This document shows, one piece after another, positions 4,023 through 63,506 of a stretch of DNA of 64,000 nt. Made by a program: the position numbers and the translations under genes. Below the pieces are notes generated by a model. It was not told the DNA's origin and did not search any database. It worked only from the letters and a program-made list of their open reading frames with translations. Position 1 is the first letter of the stretch. Every line of letters starts with the position of its first letter. Source of the DNA: Escherichia phage vB_EcoD-Elw; the sequence record OR621298; one strand, written 5' to 3'.

Positions 4023-4515
4023 TACTCCAATTATTTTTCTAGACATTGATGGGGTGCTCAATTCGAGCATCTCCCACCATCATGCACCTGATGATGAAAA
4101 GATTTTCTTTGGAAGTGACTGGGTTTTCAAACCACTTCTCAAGGCTTTTCAGGACTTTATTCGTCCTTCTCCGATAATGATTGTTGGAGTATCCTCATGG
4201 TTCTCTGTCAGGAATGAGATGGAGAACGTTCAGATTATGACCGGATTAGGTCTTATCGATCGTTTTCTTGGTACAACGGATTTTACCGGGGGTGGATTAT
4301 CTAGGGGTAATTCTGTTCTTCGCTTCGTTGAAAAGCATAAGCTCAAACATTGGTGTGTGCTGGATGATGCCGGTGCTATGATGTATCAGTATCCAACGGT
4401 TATAGTCAATGGTAGAACAGGAATAAATCTTCAGGATTTAAAAGCTGTTAGCTATATGCTAGAATTTAGCCCAGATCTTGAAATGTGTAAATCCTTACAA
4501 CAATTTAAGGTGTAA
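4009..4515 (+). CDS. HAD-like phosphatase (putative)
   Basis: N-terminal IIFLDIDGVLNS (HAD motif I) and a later LDDAG motif. Confidence 0.45.
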   Translation: MEISNTPIIFLDIDGVLNSSISHHHAPDDEKIFFGSDWVFKPLLKAFQDFIRPSPIMIVGVSSWFSVRNEMENVQIMTGLGLIDRFLGTTDFTGGGLSRGNSVLRFVEKHKLKHWCVLDDAGAMMYQYPTVIVNGRTGINLQDLKAVSYMLEFSPDLEMCKSLQQFKV

Positions 4516-4517
4516 AT

Positions 4518-4946
4518 ATGTTCAATAATGTATTCTCTAAAGAAGCTAACCCAATTTTGGTTAACTTTTGGCGTACTCTCCCGGCTAGCCTGTATAATGA
4601 GGCTATTAACTCCTTGAAAATATGGTGTGAGAATAACGAAATCTCCTTTGCTTTTAAAGATGATATTGATGAGGCCCCCTGTATTGGTCTAGTTGTGCAG
4701 GTAGAGGAGGGTCTTGAAGAGATTGTGGGCTGGAAAGAGTTAGACGAAATGGGCTTAGTTTTTGCGTTAAATTATAAGCTGTTTATGCCTGCTAAGCATC
4801 GCCTAGTTGTTAACTATAAAACTAGTGAATCTCCTGGTTTTCAGGTTAATGAACGTTATGGTTGGTCTTACTCACCGGAAGAAGTAAATGATGGTATCCA
4901 AAAACTTCGTCGTTTTGGTTATCAAATTCCGGGTTTAACCGCCTAA
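4518..4946 (+). CDS. hypothetical protein, tandem paralogue A
   Basis: 142 aa; shares DEAPCIGLVV, ELDEMGLVFALNY and YQIPGLT motifs with the next ORF. Confidence 0.5.
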   Translation: MFNNVFSKEANPILVNFWRTLPASLYNEAINSLKIWCENNEISFAFKDDIDEAPCIGLVVQVEEGLEEIVGWKELDEMGLVFALNYKLFMPAKHRLVVNYKTSESPGFQVNERYGWSYSPEEVNDGIQKLRRFGYQIPGLTA

Positions 4947-4955
4947 GGGGGCATA

Positions 4956-5348
4956 ATGGAACAAGTATATTGGCGTCAGATTGATCCTAGTTTGGTGAAG
5001 CGTGCGGAGAAGCTGCTACAACGTTGGTTGGTGGTAAGACAAGTCTCCTTCACTTTTCCGGAGCAGCAAACGGATGATCCATGCATTGGCGTTTTCCTGT
5101 CTGGATATGCCGGGGAATGGGAATTGGATTGGAATGAATTGTCTGCTATGGGCTTGATTGTTGCCCTAAACTTCTCTATATTCCATCCACGTGGTTTGGC
5201 CATATGTCGTGTGCCTGATGACGGTTGTTCGCCCCATCTTTTACAGGTGGAAGATGATATTTGGGAGTACACTCCAGATATTCTCGCAGAAGCTAAAGAA
5301 CAATTAAATCGTGTTGGGATTTATGTTCCGGGCTTAAATGATGGATGA
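4956..5348 (+). CDS. hypothetical protein, tandem paralogue B
   Basis: 130 aa; DDPCIGVF, ELSAMGLIVALNF and IYVPGLN motifs parallel the preceding ORF. Confidence 0.5.
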   Translation: MEQVYWRQIDPSLVKRAEKLLQRWLVVRQVSFTFPEQQTDDPCIGVFLSGYAGEWELDWNELSAMGLIVALNFSIFHPRGLAICRVPDDGCSPHLLQVEDDIWEYTPDILAEAKEQLNRVGIYVPGLNDG

Positions 5349-5468: not shown

Positions 5469-5965
5469 ATTTATATTGAATTGAGAGACATTAGTAAAAA
5501 TTGATTTTGCTAATTTTTCTTGTTTACAATCCGCGATACGGAACAGTTAGGCTGCCCCATTAAGGGTTGTTTTAACTATTACTAGTGTTTATATTGCATT
5601 AGTTAATCTTCAATTAAGTGATCTGTGTACCCTGAATTCGGAAAGGTAAATCCAAACCGTGCATATTTAGCTCGTTATATAGGCAGAGTTTTATATGGGG
5701 GTGCGAACGAAAAGAGCAGCGAATGGCGGCACGTACAGTAGTCACCTACCAATAGGATAGTGAGGACAAATAGAATCGGCTTAGCGGCCAATGACCTAGG
5801 TTCTATTCTGTATATGAGCGAAGAGAGCACAGCACTGAGATATGATAACTTATTCATATTGCTTGATGATAATTAATGTTTACGTAAATAGTAGTAATAG
5901 TTGTTCTATTCTTTCTGAATAGTCCTAAAGAAAAGATTTCGATTAACCAACACAGGAGTATTGTT

Positions 5966-8755
5966 GTGTTTTCTATTCTCCAAGGTCACGCCGGATTTTC
6001 TCGTGATTTAGCAACAGGTATTTGGCGAGAAATCAAAGCGGAAGATTATACCTTTGCCAAGCGATTCTCGAAAAAGCATCCAGAAGGTAAACCAGCTTCT
6101 ATGCCCTTCAAATTTGATGTAATAGAAGAGCATGACCCGCAAAGCCTTGCCGAAATGTTACCACTTATGAGACGTTTAACGTCTGACCCTCATATCGTTG
6201 CGGTACGAGGTCGATGTCTTGCACCTAAAAATAACGTGCGACGTAAGAAAGGTAACTTTAATGTATCTAATCCTAGTAATATTATTGCTATGGACGTGGA
6301 TGGTATCCTAGATACCGGTGGGTATGACAAGTTTAACCTTGTTGGTATGGCCCGCCACATTATTAAGATGTTGAATAGTATTAGTGAGGACATGTTCCCT
6401 CTTGATGCAGGCTTTATAGCTCATGCATCGTCTTCGGCTGGGCTTAAACCAGGTATCCGAATGCACTTAATGCTAGAATCTAACGTCAAGGTAACTCAGG
6501 GTCAGTTAAAGTTCTTATTTACATCTATCAACGATAGTAGTAAGCAAAAATTTGGTTTTGATATTGCCGACTTAGCTTATTATTCATCTGTCCAGCTCCA
6601 CTATTTTGCCGACCCCTTATTTAGTGATGGTATTGTTGATCCGTTTAAAGCGGAGAGTAAGCCACGTCTGGTGTATGTTAAAGGTTCGAAAGTAAATTTG
6701 CCCAATAATCTGGTTGACTATGAAACAACTAGAGGGGAGTTTAAGGAAGAGTTTTATTCTTTACTTGATCAAATTAAAGGCAAAAAGATCGCGTCTGATA
6801 AAGTAGAAGAAACCATCAGCGAATTGGAAGAAGCTGAGGATGGGGTGTACCTGCGTATTATCCCCAAACTATACCATAGAGCATTAGAGGATGGTGTTGA
6901 TTTTGCATGGCTAGAACGTGAGATTAAACCCGCTTTATCTGAATATATTGCAACTAAAGATAACAGTCGTAATATTCAAGATTACTTTAATAACGGTCGT
7001 AAGCAGGCTCTCAAAGCGTTTGTTAATAATTCTAAACGTGAGATTCCATTAAATCTGAAAGGTGTTCCGCTCAAGAAGTTAGAAGTGGATTCTCCACCAG
7101 AAGTTCCGTACCTGAAGATTAACATTGTGCCTCCAAAAGGCCATATAACATTTGTTAAGGCAAGTCTTGGTACTGGTAAAACTACGGCAGTAACTAAATG
7201 GCTGGACGCAGGTGTTCTTCCTGGCAACTTTTTAGCAGTTACAAATACTAGAGCACTGGTATCTTCAAACGCTAAGAAATTTAGCGCAGGACAATATGAT
7301 AAGTCTGTAGATATGCTCAACTTTAAACGTGGAGCTATTGATCGTATGTCCACAACTATTCACTCTTTGCATAAGTTCAAAAGTTTTATTGGTCAAATAG
7401 ATACCATTTTTATTGATGAATGTGATGCTGTAATGAATGATCTATTATTCGCACCTGTTGTTAAGCAACGTCGCGAATGTATTCAAGTTCTACGTGACAT
7501 CCTCATGACAGCTAAAACTGTAATTCTATCAGATGGTGATATTAGTGCCGAAACTATTGAAGCATATGGTTCTCTAATTGATTTTGATAAACCAGTAGCA
7601 TTTTATAATCATCACCGTAAGATGCTGTCAAAAGCTCATGCTTATGAGTTCCCGGATGAGTCCAGTATTTGGGTTGCACTTCAGACTTCTCTAGAGATGG
7701 GTGAGAAATCTATCCTAGTATCTGATTGTGGGCCGGATGAACTGAATGAGAAGGGCATGGCGTTGCGTCGTAATACGGGTGCATTAGTTAAGGAAATCCA
7801 CTCAAACTCTACGTCTGATGTAGATATTAGACGTATTCTGGATTACACAACTAATGAGCTAATTGACCAACAAATTGATTGCTTATTATGTAGTCCATCT
7901 GTAACGAGTGGTGTTGACTTTAACTATTTTGATAACGTATTCGTTATCACTAGAACTAGCAACCAAGCGCCAAACATGCGTTTCCAAGCAATCAGGCGCG
8001 ACCGTGGTGCTCAGAATATCTATTATTTTATTGATAAATCCACTAGTGGGTTCTCCGCAGGTTCTGAACAATATAATATTGATGAAGGTTGGCTGGAGTT
8101 AGCACAGCAATTATACGCACGTCGCAGAGAACTAGAATCTAGGAACTATACTAGTACTTTACGTTATTACTTGCTTGATCAGGGTGCAACTATTGATATT
8201 TTCAGCGAAAGCTGGGGAACTATTGAAGGTGCTGGTAAAGAATACACAGAAGAGCGAATCAAAGCTATCCTACATTCAACTCCGGATTACTGTGCACCAC
8301 GTCATGCGGATGCGTATGAGGCTAAACTACTTCTTGTTCGCTATTATCATCTTGAGTCTATTAAAGATGTAACAGTTGAGCATGTTGAACAATATATCAA
8401 AGATAAACCGAATGATCGAGCTGCATTCTTCCATAAGATGCACGAGATGTTCTGGGAAGATATTAAGAAGTGTTCAAATGTGACCATTAAACCATTCATA
8501 GAGGCTCTGAAAGGTAAGAAGAAAGACTTCTTCCTTAAAACAGGTCAGAGTGCTAACCCAAAATATGCTAGAATGTATCTTGGTATGATGGGTATTGGTA
8601 AGGATATGAACACTGAAAATATTGTAGACTGGTACAGAACCTATTGTAAAATCGAGTGTATGCCAATCCCATATAAGTTTATGACTGATGAGGAGAAACA
8701 TATGCATGATGAAGCAATGGCAGAGCTAGGTGCTAGAAATGACAGTGAAGAATAA
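5966..8755 (+). CDS. P-loop NTPase, putative helicase or replication-initiation ATPase
   Basis: 929 aa; Walker A SLGTGKTTAV and DEAD-like IFIDECD; GTG start with AGGAG RBS. Confidence 0.55.
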   Translation: MFSILQGHAGFSRDLATGIWREIKAEDYTFAKRFSKKHPEGKPASMPFKFDVIEEHDPQSLAEMLPLMRRLTSDPHIVAVRGRCLAPKNNVRRKKGNFNVSNPSNIIAMDVDGILDTGGYDKFNLVGMARHIIKMLNSISEDMFPLDAGFIAHASSSAGLKPGIRMHLMLESNVKVTQGQLKFLFTSINDSSKQKFGFDIADLAYYSSVQLHYFADPLFSDGIVDPFKAESKPRLVYVKGSKVNLPNNLVDYETTRGEFKEEFYSLLDQIKGKKIASDKVEETISELEEAEDGVYLRIIPKLYHRALEDGVDFAWLEREIKPALSEYIATKDNSRNIQDYFNNGRKQALKAFVNNSKREIPLNLKGVPLKKLEVDSPPEVPYLKINIVPPKGHITFVKASLGTGKTTAVTKWLDAGVLPGNFLAVTNTRALVSSNAKKFSAGQYDKSVDMLNFKRGAIDRMSTTIHSLHKFKSFIGQIDTIFIDECDAVMNDLLFAPVVKQRRECIQVLRDILMTAKTVILSDGDISAETIEAYGSLIDFDKPVAFYNHHRKMLSKAHAYEFPDESSIWVALQTSLEMGEKSILVSDCGPDELNEKGMALRRNTGALVKEIHSNSTSDVDIRRILDYTTNELIDQQIDCLLCSPSVTSGVDFNYFDNVFVITRTSNQAPNMRFQAIRRDRGAQNIYYFIDKSTSGFSAGSEQYNIDEGWLELAQQLYARRRELESRNYTSTLRYYLLDQGATIDIFSESWGTIEGAGKEYTEERIKAILHSTPDYCAPRHADAYEAKLLLVRYYHLESIKDVTVEHVEQYIKDKPNDRAAFFHKMHEMFWEDIKKCSNVTIKPFIEALKGKKKDFFLKTGQSANPKYARMYLGMMGIGKDMNTENIVDWYRTYCKIECMPIPYKFMTDEEKHMHDEAMAELGARNDSEE

Positions 8756-55736: not shown

Positions 55737-57401
55737 TTACGCAAAAAATTTACCGTTCTTAAAATCGATCAAAGTACGCTGACCATTTGCATAGGTAATT
55801 AAATGCGTTTGTGTCCAGCTTGACGCGCCAACGTTGTAACCCATGTCCAGACTACCAGCCACGCCAGCGGTATATACCCCGCCGTAAATGCTGGCGGTAT
55901 GAGTGTGCCCCGTGTTTAATTTGCCCAATTTCTTAAACTGTTTCGGATTGCCACGGCTGCCGTTTATGCCATTGTGACCGTGTACGCCGCATTCAATGCC
56001 TGCAATTTTAAATGATTGGTCAGTCGTTAGGAAAATGGCGTTAAACTCGCAACCTGCAACCTTACGCAGCGCATAATCTAGCACGTTGAAAGTATCGTCT
56101 TTTTCTGCAATAGCTCCGTAAATCGCGGCATTCAGGCGGTGATATAGTTCCGCGTTCGCTGGGTCGTCTTTAATGTTAGCATTACGATCATCAAGCCAAC
56201 GGGATAGCGCCAAATCGTGATTCGATTCAACAATGATTGTTTGCGAGAAATCGCGCTCCATTGATTCCAGTACGCGCCCCGTATCGATGAGATCATCCAG
56301 AACTTTATCACGTCCGGCGGCGTATTGTTTTGCTAGGAATACACCCGAAGCGCGGTTGTGATGGTTGCGTGATGTAAAATCGTGAACGTCATGGATAAAC
56401 TGATATTTTGGTTTAAGAATATCAAGCAAGCTATTTTCGCCAGCCCATGACGCAATGGCACAATCATCATCAAGTTTTTCGGCGTGTATGTCGCCATATT
56501 GCAAGCCTAAAACATGCCCCGATGTTTCATAGCATCCGGCGGGAGTAGCGCAAACATTCAGATCATAAAACACCCCGCTTTCGTCCATTGTTTCAAGCTG
56601 GCGAACAAAAAACTCACCGTCTTCGTCGAACTCAACAATCAGCGCACCGAAGTTATGCAGTGCTTCCGCTTTCTGTCCTGCTTTCTGCTGGATGTAATTT
56701 TTAAGCGTTGCCGTGCCAGTTGAATACATGCGGCGCACTACTTCACCTTTTAAAGCTGGCACGCTTTCGGCGGTGATTTTAGCGTGACCAATTGCCAGAC
56801 CTTCCAGATTAAGCGCGGTTGCAGTTTCAGCGAATCCAGAAAGCGGATAATCTGCGGTGGGCAAAACATTAATTTCAGCCATGAAAGCAAAACGGCGATT
56901 ATTCAAAAACACGTTTTTGCTGCAAATATATTTATCGAACGCGGAATCATATTTTATTCCATCCGCGCCCTCGCCATTTTGGAATCCGTTTTTATTATAA
57001 ATATACTTGCTAACCAGCAAATCAGCGCCGATATATTTAGCAAATTGCTCCAGTGAGGCTAAAAAGTTTTTATGCGGGAACGTATTATTCTGAATCGATG
57101 TAATAATAAAGCGTTTGCCTTGTTTTACTTCCCAGCTTTCCACCGTGCTAGAAACAATCCCCGCCGCTTCTGGGCGCTCATCGTTTTTAATGGCTTTTGC
57201 TACTTTCGCCGCTTTCGGTTTCGCTGGTTTATTTGCTTCCAGCCAATCACAAATAGCGGTGGAATGTTTTGGAGTATCGTAAACCGCTTTTGATATATCG
57301 TCACAAACTTCCAATTTAGTGGCGCGCAGGCGTTTACCGTAGAAATTAAAGTCAGCGGCCATTTTCAGGATAACGGTTTGTTTTTCTGCGGAAATAATCA
57401 T
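55737..57401 (-). CDS. A1: A1-like pre-early protein, metallophosphoesterase-fold nuclease
   Basis: 554 aa; calcineurin-like motifs GDIH, ESNHD, HGH, GHTH; size close to the 556 aa I recall for T5 A1. Confidence 0.7.
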   Translation of the reverse strand: MIISAEKQTVILKMAADFNFYGKRLRATKLEVCDDISKAVYDTPKHSTAICDWLEANKPAKPKAAKVAKAIKNDERPEAAGIVSSTVESWEVKQGKRFIITSIQNNTFPHKNFLASLEQFAKYIGADLLVSKYIYNKNGFQNGEGADGIKYDSAFDKYICSKNVFLNNRRFAFMAEINVLPTADYPLSGFAETATALNLEGLAIGHAKITAESVPALKGEVVRRMYSTGTATLKNYIQQKAGQKAEALHNFGALIVEFDEDGEFFVRQLETMDESGVFYDLNVCATPAGCYETSGHVLGLQYGDIHAEKLDDDCAIASWAGENSLLDILKPKYQFIHDVHDFTSRNHHNRASGVFLAKQYAAGRDKVLDDLIDTGRVLESMERDFSQTIIVESNHDLALSRWLDDRNANIKDDPANAELYHRLNAAIYGAIAEKDDTFNVLDYALRKVAGCEFNAIFLTTDQSFKIAGIECGVHGHNGINGSRGNPKQFKKLGKLNTGHTHTASIYGGVYTAGVAGSLDMGYNVGASSWTQTHLITYANGQRTLIDFKNGKFFA

Positions 57402-57498: not shown

Positions 57499-57744
57499 TT
57501 AATTTAAAGGCATAAGGCTAGAACTAACACCACAAACAACGGCGGCAATAAAACAAATCAGACCTAAACGCTTTGCTAACTTAGATTTACGTTTAAAATA
57601 ATATGAATCTAAATCATTTTGAAAATAAGCGAATAGTAATGAGGCCGCCATAATAAATAAGCCTAGAATTAAGGATTCAGTAGGGTAAAAGATCATTTTA
57701 ATAACTCCAGTCAAAGGGAAATTATAGTGGGGAATATTCCCCAC
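57499..57744 (-). CDS. small two-helix membrane protein
   Basis: 81 aa with two hydrophobic segments. Confidence 0.45.
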   Translation of the reverse strand: MGNIPHYNFPLTGVIKMIFYPTESLILGLFIMAASLLFAYFQNDLDSYYFKRKSKLAKRLGLICFIAAVVCGVSSSLMPLN

Positions 57745-57753
57745 TAATTAAAT

Positions 57754-58170
57754 TTATTCGCCTGCGGCTTGTTTCACTTCATCGGCAACGCCTAACAGTT
57801 GCGCCACGGCGTCCAGCGTTTCCAGTTTTGCGCTTTCCAGTGATGCCAGATCGTCGGCGTCTTTGATAATGCCGGAATCGATAGCGTGTTTTGCAATAAC
57901 GCGCACATAATGCGCTTTGCGGATTGAGCTACCGCCGCCAACTTTGCGCGGCTTATCGCTTTTCTGATACGCTTTTGCGCTGGTCAATTTTGAGCGAACG
58001 GACACGGGGGAGGCCGCGCCAACTGCTTTTGCAATCTCTTTCAGGCCGTCGCTATTTGCGAAATCTAAACCGTTTTCATTAATTAACTGCTGGTACATGG
58101 TAACAGCTTTTTGGGTGTTTTCTTCATTCCATGCAAATTTTGCGGATTTTTCGGTTTTAACGTTAGCCAT
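57754..58170 (-). CDS. A2-like pre-early protein (putative)
   Basis: 138 aa; position directly upstream of A1; assignment by synteny only. Confidence 0.4.
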   Translation of the reverse strand: MANVKTEKSAKFAWNEENTQKAVTMYQQLINENGLDFANSDGLKEIAKAVGAASPVSVRSKLTSAKAYQKSDKPRKVGGGSSIRKAHYVRVIAKHAIDSGIIKDADDLASLESAKLETLDAVAQLLGVADEVKQAAGE

Positions 58171-58269: not shown

Positions 58270-58521
58270 TTATAAAACAGCTTCCCATTTTTCGTTACGC
58301 TGGACAACCTTTACAACGTCGCCGGATTTAACGCGAACGCTAAAAACGGTTTTGCCGTTGTTACTCCGTTCCGTTTCAGCGTATACCGCGTCGATTGTAT
58401 CGAACGGCATAAGCGCCGCGCCTTTAATGCGTTCGGCCTTTCCGGTTAATTCATCCGTTTTAGTAACGAAAGGAATAAAAACGGATTGACCAACTTTCGG
58501 CGCGGTAATAACGTTTTGCAT
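58270..58521 (-). CDS. hypothetical pre-early protein
   Basis: 83-aa ORF with AGGAG RBS. Confidence 0.45.
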   Translation of the reverse strand: MQNVITAPKVGQSVFIPFVTKTDELTGKAERIKGAALMPFDTIDAVYAETERSNNGKTVFSVRVKSGDVVKVVQRNEKWEAVL

Positions 58522-58556
58522 AATATAAACTCCTAGTTATTTGGGGATTGTTCCGC

Positions 58557-58586
58557 ATTACCTGCTAGAAAGTAACAGCAGGTAAT
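58557..58586. promoter_or_regulatory. palindrome upstream of the 83-aa ORF
   Basis: attacctgct-agaaagtaac-agcaggtaat, perfect 10-bp arms, no U-tract. Confidence 0.4.
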
Positions 58587-58719
58587 AAGTAACAATCCGC
58601 TCGCCAATATAATCAATTTAAAGAACTCCACGCAGGCCGCTATATCCCAGTTAGGGGGCGGGGCACATTATGGTAAGTGCCGACCGTCAAATTTTATCAA
58701 GTTATCGCTCTTATCGAAC

Positions 58720-58744
58720 TGGGTACATCTTAAAGCCTATCGGC
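58720..58744. repeat. 25-bp perfect inverted repeat, copy A
   Basis: tgggtacatcttaaagcctatcggc; exact reverse complement of 58988-59012. Confidence 0.85.
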
Positions 58745-58751
58745 TAGGGTG

Positions 58752-58955
58752 TCAAACAATTTTTTGCAGTTTTTTATGATTTTCTTTTAAGTCAATCATA
58801 ATATTACGCCAGATCATTTCCAGACCTTGCTGGCGGCCTTTCTTGTACTGCTTAAATCGATATTTTACCGATCTTTGCGCTACTGTCAACAAATTTTTTG
58901 TTTTGCTGTCCAGTGCCTTGCTAGGTTTACCAGTGATCAATAAAGTTTGTTTCAT
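58752..58955 (-). CDS. small basic protein enclosed by the 25-bp inverted repeats
   Basis: 67 aa, Lys/Arg-rich; ATGA-type overlap with the upstream ORF. Confidence 0.4.
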   Translation of the reverse strand: MKQTLLITGKPSKALDSKTKNLLTVAQRSVKYRFKQYKKGRQQGLEMIWRNIMIDLKENHKKLQKIV

Positions 58956-59242
58956 ATCGTCGATTCCTTATAATGTATAAGTTTACCGCCGATAGGCTTT
59001 AAGATGTACCCAATTTTTAAAGAGCGCGGCGGTAAACTTCCCGCCGTGTAGTTCGTCATTGCCGCCCTACGAGATAAATAATAGGGGATTCCCGAAAATG
59101 GCGCAACCTTATTTTTGTAAAGAAATGTAAAGACAAACGCCACCGGACACCATGCGGCGACCGGGGCGCGGCGCATTAAAATTAAAAGAAACGGGCGCGC
59201 GAATACCATAAAACCCAGCAGGTTGGCAAGTAATTTTTTCAT
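58952..59242 (-). CDS. hypothetical protein with N-terminal hydrophobic segment (doubtful)
   Basis: 96-aa ORF; weak RBS; its coding sequence contains inverted-repeat copy B. Confidence 0.3.
   Translation of the reverse strand: MKKLLANLLGFMVFARPFLLILMRRAPVAAWCPVAFVFTFLYKNKVAPFSGIPYYLSRRAAMTNYTAGSLPPRSLKIGYILKPIGGKLIHYKESTI
58988..59012. repeat. 25-bp perfect inverted repeat, copy B, with nested local stem
   Basis: gccgataggctttaagatgtaccca; flanked by gtttaccgcc (58981-58990) and ggcggtaaac (59028-59037). Confidence 0.85.
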
Positions 59243-59411
59243 TTATATTTGCCTTGCCCTACTTGACAAAACTTAAAAAGCTCGTGGTAGCGATAAACGA
59301 GGGTAGGCAATGCAATGGCATGGCTAAAACTTTCATCGCGTTCTAGGGCGTTTTAGGCGCATTCTAGCCTTGTTGATAACTTATCCCCAAAAGCAAAAAT
59401 GAAATTTTCCT

Positions 59412-59448
59412 AGTTATCCACTTGACTTTTATTTTCCAGTGGATAACT
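59412..59448. promoter_or_regulatory. inverted pair of DnaA-box-like sites
   Basis: agttatccac-17bp-gtggataact; each half is TTATCCACt, one mismatch from the consensus TTATCCACA. Confidence 0.5.
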
Positions 59449-59594
59449 ACTTATTTTATGAAATAAATTAATTGACTTTTATTTGTTAGTATGCATCGGA
59501 AGAATAGCAGACTAATAATTACTAGAATAATAATCATGCTGGTGGATTGTAACGGCCTAAACTATCAGCAGACTATTAATCACGAAAAATCTCG

Positions 59595-59625
59595 TTAGCT
59601 AACTAACTATTTCATGATGTATAAT
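59595..59625 (+). promoter_or_regulatory. candidate sigma70 promoter with early-type leader
   Basis: TATAAT at 59620-59625 followed by atacatataaatt, as in the early promoters; -35 weak. Confidence 0.35.
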
Positions 59626-59741
59626 ATACATATAAATTAATGAGAAATAATAATTATAATAAATAATAACTACAGTAAATAATAACTATAAGAAACTATC
59701 GGCCTAAGTGAGAACCACTATCATTTAAGTTATACACAAAG

Positions 59742-59811
59742 TTATCCACAGCACTTTTTGACTTTACACGATAGGCGGCGATATAAGGACTTTTACACAG
59801 ACTTATCCACA
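59742..59811 (+). promoter_or_regulatory. two consensus DnaA boxes bracketing a candidate promoter
   Basis: TTATCCACA at 59742-59750 and 59803-59811; TTGACT 59758-59763 and TATAAG 59782-59787 lie between them. Confidence 0.5.
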
Positions 59812-60104
59812 GGTTATTCCACTGTATAAATATACAGGGTAAAAAGGTAGTGTTAACAACTGCAATCAATTTTAAGCGGCTTAAATCGCATTCTAACGAG
59901 CTAAACGCTGCGGGGTAATATTAAAGTAAAGCCTTAATGCGTCACCCTGGTGGCTTCGCCGTGGTTTGCTCTTTATTGCACCGCTGCGCGGTTAGCATAA
60001 AAATAGGCGCTAGGCAAGGAAAATAAAAAGGTAAAATAATATTTGCCTATGCTAGAAATTTACCTTTATCATTCACTCACCGATTAACGAGGGAGGCCGA
60101 ACAA

Positions 60105-63221: not shown

Positions 63222-63332
63222 ACTGTATATTTATACAGTAGGATAAGCTGTGGATAAGTCTGTTAATAACGCCTCAAAATGGCTAGGATTCTGTCAAGTC
63301 AAATCGTGCTGTTAATAAGTCTGTGGATAACT
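63222..63332. promoter_or_regulatory. DnaA boxes (inverted orientation) and palindrome
   Basis: TGTGGATAA at 63249-63257 and 63322-63330; palindrome actgtata-tt-tatacagt at 63222-63239. Confidence 0.55.
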
Positions 63333-63344
63333 TAAATAATAGTG

Positions 63345-63506
63345 TTTCTCACTTCCATTCTTAAATGCAAATCATTATCATTCGCATTTCACTTTCTAAA
63401 TGAGAATCATTTCACTTCTTGAATAGTTCTCATTTCACTTTTTAAATGCGAATTATTATCATTCTCATTTCGCTTTTTAAATGATTCTTATTATCATTCG
63501 CATTCA
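63345..63506. repeat. five degenerate ~30-bp direct repeats
   Basis: Units of form tt(t/c)tTAAATG(c/a)gAAT(t/c)ATTATCATTCGCATTTCAC, imperfect, no unique spacers. Confidence 0.7.

Follow-up and report, generated by a model that had tools for sequence, protein, structure and literature searches.

The inverted repeat around hdi in T5-like phages: a promoter-overlapping element and candidate long-range RNA helix

A 64,000-nt stretch of Escherichia phage vB_EcoD-Elw (record OR621298), the whole of which is referred to here as the window, carries a perfect 25-bp inverted repeat whose two arms, A and A', sit among minus-strand genes and enclose hdi, a small gene homologous to T5.008. The repeat is a genuine, selected feature and not a new kind of system; the gene it encloses and the promoters were known before, as was the repeat itself. 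New here are the findings that the arms evolve by compensatory change across the whole family, that one arm coincides exactly with the core of a promoter, and that a nested stem once thought to compete with the repeat is unsupported. The reading favoured here, with a probability of about 45%, is that the arms form a selected long-range RNA helix which, in read-through transcripts of the pre-early region, would loop out the hdi cistron and would probably be a substrate of RNase III.

Arm A (TGGGTACATCTTAAAGCCTATCGGC) is the exact reverse complement of arm A', 243 nt away (Table 1), and both the sequence and a repeat scan confirm the exact 25-bp inverted repeats of the original prediction. The pair is the longest perfect inverted repeat in the window with arms up to 1 kb apart, the runners-up being 17-nt overlapping palindromes, and by our own arithmetic a 25-mer inverted repeat within 300 nt has a chance expectation of ~1e-8. 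The A/A' repeat is a real, non-random feature. Beyond the perfect core the complementarity continues imperfectly to 39 nt (58706-58744 with 58988-59026, 87% complementary), and phages SE7, rokbiter and fuchur have this outer extension in near-perfect form (35-39 nt). On the A' side the extension is almost invariant among close relatives, with a nucleotide diversity (pi) of 0.005. Within the window the arm motif occurs at no site other than the two arms and GCTCTTTAAAAA occurs once, while an Rfam search returned no relevant match.

By gene content the window carries the pre-early, or first-step-transfer, region of a T5-like phage. Homologues of T5 A1 (55737-57401), A2 (57754-58170) and gene 007 (58270-58521) lie on the minus strand, and more than 440 T5-like phage genomes match the region. 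The GenBank annotation of T5 (AY587007) lists an 'inverted repeat A' (IRA) at 4682-4706 and an 'inverted repeat A'' (IRA') at 4950-4974, which are 100% and 96% identical to arms A and A', respectively. From this comparison the window repeat is identified as the orthologue of T5 IRA/IRA', and every defining feature tested was found. The two share 25-bp arms, a spacing of 243 bp and a placement between gene 007 and T5.009 around T5.008, upstream of T5.007-A2-A1 and inside the first-step-transfer region; a second T5 record, AY543070, likewise places T5.008 between the arms. They differ in that the T5 arms hold one mismatch, leaving a perfect run of 16, whereas those of the window are perfect. In Davison's comparison of T5-like phages, IRA, IRA' and IRB are grouped in 'Repeat Region 1' of the left terminal repeat with no function assigned, and the region is treated as 'untranslated' (bioRxiv 10.1101/866236). 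The 67-aa open reading frame (ORF) previously noticed between the arms is indeed present on the minus strand, and its T5 counterpart is Hdi, a host division inhibitor acting on FtsZ (PMC10714956).

Conservation and co-variation of the arms in relatives had been set beforehand as the test of the prediction, and the arms are both conserved and co-varying. For the comparison, IMG/VR, metagenomes and GenBank supplied 57 distinct versions of the region, 55 of which were analysable for both arms. The metagenome anchor pattern GCTCTTTAAAAA-N35-60-TATAAGGA was too loose, giving at least 120 loci that were mostly chance hits, with 12 T5-like sequences among the matches listed; a second scan of viral contigs yielded hardly any further phages. 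When each region was searched without bias for its best inverted repeat, the homologous pair came up in 55/55. The repeat stands around the hdi cassette in every relative examined, spanning Tequintavirus, Epseptimavirus, Sugarlandvirus and Pectobacterium phage My1. Diverged arms are found at the same place in TrudiGerster (31 nt, 94%) and in Klebsiella Sugarlandvirus (30 nt, 93%; ATTGGGATTCTATAAAAAAGCGTTATCGGC / GCCGATAACGCTTTATTATAGAATCTCAAT). My1, which belongs to another subfamily, has a 16-nt repeat at 94% around hdi-like My1_013 and My1_012, with its downstream arm inside a TTGACA-17-TATGAT promoter. In all lineages the downstream arm begins ~5 nt after TTGACA with the same -35/N17/-10 layout. 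The -10 element within this arm varies by lineage (TAAGAT, TAAAAT, TAATAT, TATTAT, TATGAT), and the upstream arm changes in step.

Pairing was counted on 22 distinct arm haplotypes against 500 shuffles and slid-register controls. Paired cells make up 96.2% of the total, compared with 89.5% in shuffles and 27-44% in slid registers. Compensatory double changes occur at 11 of the 25 arm pairs, none of the 500 shuffles reached the observed values, and one relative (L076) carries a matched 1-nt insertion in both arms. Pairing is best conserved in the promoter-spacer part, at 99%. Complementarity is judged to be actively maintained because of the pairing excess and the double changes, set against the shuffled and slid controls. 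Perfect arms are nonetheless found in only 6/55 relatives, and identical single mismatches persist across many lineages. Among 31 close relatives pi is 0.034-0.035 in each arm, 0.111 in hdi (0.195 at third positions) and 0.10-0.15 in the flanks, making the arms ~3-fold more conserved than their flanks. These values place both arms under purifying selection, even the one that is not a promoter, and the constraint includes the spacer, which is not normally constrained in sigma-70 promoters.

The promoters determine which transcripts can carry both arms. Two sigma-70 promoters, P_H22 and P1, lie between and on the arms, so the original placement of both arms in one minus-strand transcription unit is only partly right. 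The P_H22 core maps to 'promoter P-H 22' of AY543070, and primer extension has shown it to be active in vivo as a pre-early promoter (PMC7472727). Arm A starts 5 nt past the -35 element of P1 and spans ~-25 to +1, taking in 12 nt of spacer, the -10 element TAAGAT and the start region; the inferred +1 of P1, at ~58720/58719, coincides with the outer end of the perfect repeat. A preprint of 2026 describes two strong promoters that overlap hdi, P_H22 fully and P_D/E20 partially, and that blocked cloning or deletion of the hdi/009 locus (bioRxiv 10.64898/2026.04.02.716235). P1 is probably P_D/E20, because of this partial overlap with hdi. AY543070 puts P-D/E20 at 4338-4664, just downstream, and a literature search with the arm sequence, made to check the published P_D/E20 sequence, found no paper.

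Transcripts from P1 carry none of arm A, and those from P_H22 carry arm A only. Both arms are found only on transcripts starting upstream of 59012, which include every transcript able to encode Hdi. Any hdi mRNA must span both arms because no promoter fits into the 32 nt between arm A' and the hdi start codon and no terminator fits into the 7 nt between the hdi stop codon and arm A. Three other candidate roles for the arms were rejected. Arm A' has no acceptable -35 element by hand and no hit in the promoter scan that would make it a plus-strand promoter; no U-run follows either structure, as an intrinsic terminator would require; and the arm motif was not found at other pre-early promoters in the window, where a general operator would be expected.

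Folding of a 371-nt minus-strand RNA (59060-58690) gives an energy of -123.8 kcal/mol against -72 for shuffles (z = -9.4), and the long-range helix dominates the structure. Pairing of the arms, for which an RNA fold had been named as a check, appears in both the minimum free energy (MFE) and the centroid structure, with a predicted uninterrupted helix of at least 20 bp. The helix comprises about 28-31 contiguous bp and continues past an internal loop for another 7 bp. RNase III would be expected to act on a perfect helix of such length. A functional duplex is reasonable because the arms are conserved and co-varying and the helix is predicted in both structures, and it is plausibly cut by this enzyme. 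An RNA stem also fits better than looping of DNA, because loop length varies freely (217-436 nt) with no conserved helical phase. RNA is further favoured because nearly every position stays paired, those of the promoter spacer included, and frequent gene conversion is disfavoured because the same mismatches persist across lineages.

In the proposed mechanism, arms A' and A would pair in read-through pre-early transcripts and close the hdi cistron into a loop of 220-440 nt, which in some phages would also take in one additional small ORF. Host RNase III would cut the helix, as its length suggests. Either this cleavage or the paired ends would then separate the toxic hdi message from the RNA upstream of it and from the 007-A2-A1 message downstream, which has strong promoters of its own, and would so set the stability and dose of the hdi message. 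Transcripts from P1 and P_H22 never carry both arms and would escape the helix. The proposal supposes that both arms are co-transcribed at a useful level, that RNase III cleaves the duplex and that Hdi is affected as a result. A more specific form of it is put forward tentatively, as a possible rather than an expected outcome: IRA/IRA' would be dual-coded, the DNA of one arm being the -25 to +1 core of a strong pre-early promoter, and the RNA arms forming a family-wide helix of 16-40 bp that loops out hdi and is cut by RNase III or stabilised by its paired ends into a monocistronic 'closed-loop' message for the FtsZ inhibitor.

Several observations weigh against an RNA helix of this kind. The plus-strand RNA also folds into the helix, and therefore folding does not choose the strand. 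An excess of G.U over A.C in one sense would indicate RNA; in the minus sense the non-Watson-Crick cells are 23 G.U against 5 A.C when counted per haplotype, falling to only ~8 against 6 by distinct sites, and a second inverted repeat in My1 has 2 of each. Background substitutions on this strand are themselves asymmetric (69 versus 103 sites), which weakens the wobble signal. The excess of paired cells over shuffles is also one that related sequences can produce, and gene conversion between the arms, or co-evolution of paired protein sites, can mimic covariation. As to the transcript, the T5 upstream promoters T5P3 and 5938-6012 have no match in the window and the promoter feeding hdi was not located with confidence, while a terminator-like GC hairpin directly upstream of arm A' could limit read-through. 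A T5 hdi deletion mutant is viable yet outcompeted by the wild type (PMC10714956), and any effect of the arms must therefore be quantitative.

The alternative that survives best places the function in DNA, and it is considered doubtful though worth carrying. The arms, together with the GC hairpin and GCTCTTTAAAAA motif and the promoter, would be module boundaries, acting as linkers where co-infecting T5-like phages swap pre-early cassettes, with complementarity kept by occasional gene conversion. Cassette content does vary between the same arms. Most phages have hdi alone, while four relatives (L076, L079, L207 and L211) have a 52-aa ORF with hdi, TrudiGerster has a 63-aa ORF with hdi and Sugarlandvirus has ORFs of 55 and 62 aa; DT571/2 has an unrelated 56-aa ORF without hdi or P_H22. 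My1 (6363-7046) carries two adjacent cassettes bracketed by inverted repeats, the second being a 38-nt repeat (84%) around My1_014, which is unrelated to hdi. The much higher conservation of the arms than of the sequence they flank is also expected of linkers, and the promoter on one arm with a hairpin beside the other gives a composite resembling the promoter-early stem-loops (PeSLs) of other phages (PMC2839356, PMC4122927). Klebsiella phage Boggle, of Sugarlandvirus type, has 75 nt (1501-1575) that are 98.7% identical to window positions 59009-59083 amid diverged surroundings, a pattern that looks like a recent exchange between genera, its junction falling at the outer limit of arm A'. Such linkers would not, however, require inversion, and PeSLs repeat in gene direction. 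A crossover between inverted arms would invert the cassette, and 0/55 relatives show an inverted one. The scarcity of perfect arms and the shared persistent mismatches imply that homogenisation is not frequent, the arm motif has only its two sites in the window, and arms as short as 16-31 bp are poorly suited to efficient gene conversion.

A motif in the outer extension of arm A', GCTCTTTAA(A/C)AA at 59014-59025, recurs by the arms in several genera, at equivalent sites of five relatives (L203, L204, L208, L212 and My1, L216, at ~6740-6760 and 7040-7060 in the last). It stands upstream of A' or downstream of A, in either orientation and often after a GC-rich hairpin, and could act as the tail of a terminator or as a linker for recombination.

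Paired protein-binding sites are a less probable explanation. A phage or host protein, for example A2 or the A1/RNA polymerase shut-off machinery, would occupy both arms and repress P1 and, by looping, P_H22, with covariation reflecting co-evolution with the protein. Arm A covers precisely -25 to +1 of a strong promoter, the classical position of an operator, with the other site upstream of hdi, and the best-paired part of the arms is the promoter spacer. The known biology of the region also fits, as pre-early promoters undergo A1-dependent shut-off and the DNA-binding protein A2 is dimeric (bioRxiv 10.1101/866236; bioRxiv 10.64898/2026.04.02.716235). Against this, essentially all 25 positions stay complementary, including those that no protein would be expected to contact, and the start-to-start arm spacing, derived from loop and arm lengths, ranges from ~245 to 470 bp without conserved helical phase. 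Other pre-early promoters in the window lack the motif, and dyad symmetry within the arm is not conserved in My1 or Sugarlandvirus. A relic or mobile element, whether with the terminal repeats of a miniature inverted-repeat transposable element (MITE), as once suggested, or with inverton ends around P_H22 and hdi, is very improbable and already largely refuted: the geometry is alike, with 25-bp perfect repeats around a 243-bp segment that holds a strong promoter, but there is no target-site duplication at the 25-nt arms (flanks GAAC / ATTT) or the 39-nt arms, each genome has one copy at a constant locus with no empty site in any relative, no relative has the opposite orientation (285/452 GenBank hits being collinear over at least 80% of the region), we know of no transposase or invertase in this region, and compensatory changes across subfamilies speak against a decaying relic.

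The local stem beside arm A' was also re-examined. The original prediction described a 10-bp stem; a stem is present, although it has 13 perfect bp (58979-58991 / 59027-59039), and it shares only 4 nt (58988-58991) with arm A'. At least 11 of its 13 pairs are present in 46/55 relatives, and it is absent in 9 that keep the long-range repeat. All changes in it are uncompensated, including a G-to-A change that gives A.C in 23 sequences. These changes, its loss in 9/55 relatives and its absence from the predicted fold do not support the proposed design of competing, mutually exclusive structures, and the nested stem is a lineage-restricted sequence feature rather than a supported structure. It is instead mutually exclusive with the GC hairpin, which together with the adjoining CGCUCUUUAAAAAUU may form a weak terminator. 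Klebsiella phage K32PH164C1 keeps a similar GC stem with another loop (GGCGG-N8-CCGCC). In two relatives (L010 and L020) the 8-nt loop of the hairpin is inverted, reading GGTAAACTTCCC instead of GGGAAGTTTACC, which abolishes the nested 13-bp stem; from the sequence, this change is read as a palindrome-mediated micro-inversion.

Table 1. Features of the A/A' repeat and its surroundings; positions are those of the window.
Feature	Position	Strand or sense	Remarks
Arm A (T5 'inverted repeat A')	58720-58744	downstream arm, minus sense	perfect inverted repeat; overlaps promoter P1
Arm A' (T5 'inverted repeat A'')	58988-59012	upstream arm, minus sense	ends 32 nt before hdi start codon
Outer extension of arm A	58706-58719		pairs imperfectly with 59013-59026
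Outer extension of arm A'	59013-59026		carries motif GCTCTTTAAAAA (minus sense)
Nested 13-bp stem	58979-59039	minus	59039-59027 with 58991-58979; arm A' in 35-nt loop
GC hairpin CGGCGG-N8-CCGCCG	59027-59046	minus	just upstream of arm A', followed by CGCUCUUUAAAAAUU; in MFE and centroid structures
Promoter P_H22 core, TTGACA-16-TAAAAT	58862-58889	minus	inside hdi, between arms; scan 11/12, best sigma-70 match in region
Promoter P1, TTGACA-17-TAAGAT	58727-58755	minus	scan 10/12; maps to AY587007 T5P1 (Wang's putative pre-early promoter)
hdi (T5.008 homologue), 67 aa	58752-58955	minus	88% identity to T5.008; phrog_4718, E=1.7e-40
96-aa ORF	58952-59242	minus	residues 1-59 match phrog_17446 (61-aa phage family); remainder is T5.009 frame

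The TGA stop codon of hdi sits within the -35 TTGACA of P1, and diversity in hdi by codon position follows the order 3 > 1 > 2. A translational trap, as originally suggested for this gene, is unlikely, as hdi has its ribosome-binding site ~21 nt into the loop and outside the arms. In phage EPS7 both arms are intact but the hdi frame is broken, leaving only a 43-aa ORF; either hdi is truly a pseudogene there or this early genome contains a sequencing error. T5.009 aligns with 58952-59059 (97% identity). Its frame crosses the GC hairpin and arm A' and finishes in an ATGA overlap with the hdi start, and the 96-aa ORF appears to be a fusion of a phrog_17446-like part with this frame. Translation of hdi could be coupled to translation across arm A', or the frame may be open simply since other causes keep the DNA conserved.

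Other elements are found nearby. A local hairpin of ~22 bp (86% complementary, 10-nt loop) at 58545-58598 on the minus strand ends ~23 nt before the start codon of gene 007. It shows compensatory double changes at 6/15 predicted pairs among 11 diverse T5-like phages, with no U-run after it, and may serve as an RNase III site of the T7 kind or stabilise the 5' end. As this leader hairpin covaries, structured RNA elements appear to recur in the operon. A 17-nt overlapping palindrome lies at 57725-57746, between the A2 homologue and the small membrane-protein gene; T5 has an annotated 'palindrome B' in the same intergenic position. T5 IRC and IRD map to 59707-59837 and their partners C' and D' to 63223-63353, with sequences resembling DnaA boxes (TTATCCACA / TGTGGATAA and variants) within 59365-59850 and 63223-63353. 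By this mapping IRC/IRD and the DnaA boxes correspond to the proposed T5 injection-stop architecture, and the window holds the whole set of first-step-transfer repeats. In T5 a hegG (HNH endonuclease) insertion stands between Repeat Regions 1 and 2; the window lacks it.

The pre-early region of T5, a module for host takeover, is classic yet poorly understood, and since 2005 its repeats have been listed with no function attached. Recent reverse genetics failed to manipulate only one part of it, the hdi/009 locus (bioRxiv 10.64898/2026.04.02.716235). That A/A' complementarity is kept by compensatory change from Tequintavirus to Myunavirus, with one arm forming a promoter core, turns a catalogue entry into a testable hypothesis, namely that the hdi message is processed or stabilised in an RNase III-dependent way. 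If the dual-coded form were true, the pre-early programme of T5 would gain its first defined RNA-processing element, and a promoter sequence would be seen to evolve under a base-pairing constraint. If the RNA hypothesis is wrong, a role of the arms as cassette boundaries would still explain the swapping of small pre-early genes among T5-like phages.

Among known systems, the PeSL cassettes of T4-type phages combine a strong sigma-70 promoter with a stem-loop (PMC2839356, PMC4122927). Like them, the T5-type repeat is a conserved promoter/stem-loop composite flanking swappable, small, non-essential host-takeover ORFs, with P1 on arm A, the GC hairpin adjoining arm A' and variable content between. 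It departs from PeSLs in copy number and orientation: these are many dispersed copies oriented with the genes, each with a local terminator stem-loop, whereas the T5-type repeat is a single inverted pair per cassette (two in My1) with pairing between the flanks. Invertons and MITEs likewise have short perfect inverted repeats bounding a segment of a few hundred bp, here with a promoter, but the T5-type repeat differs from them in orientation polymorphism, target-site duplication and further copies, none of which was seen among the relatives or in the window. In E. coli, long-range stems cut by RNase III flank 16S and 23S rRNA in their precursors, and RNase III sites separate the early genes of T7. 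The T7 sites are local hairpins with internal loops, whereas T5-type arms are 240-440 nt apart, and in the repeat described here one arm doubles as a promoter core and cleavage is a prediction. The shared plan is a stable helix of at least 20 bp that brackets a functional segment of a polycistronic transcript. With T7 the likeness extends to the setting, an early phage operon read by the host polymerase, and the T7 early region also encodes an FtsZ inhibitor, gp0.4 (cited in PMC10714956).

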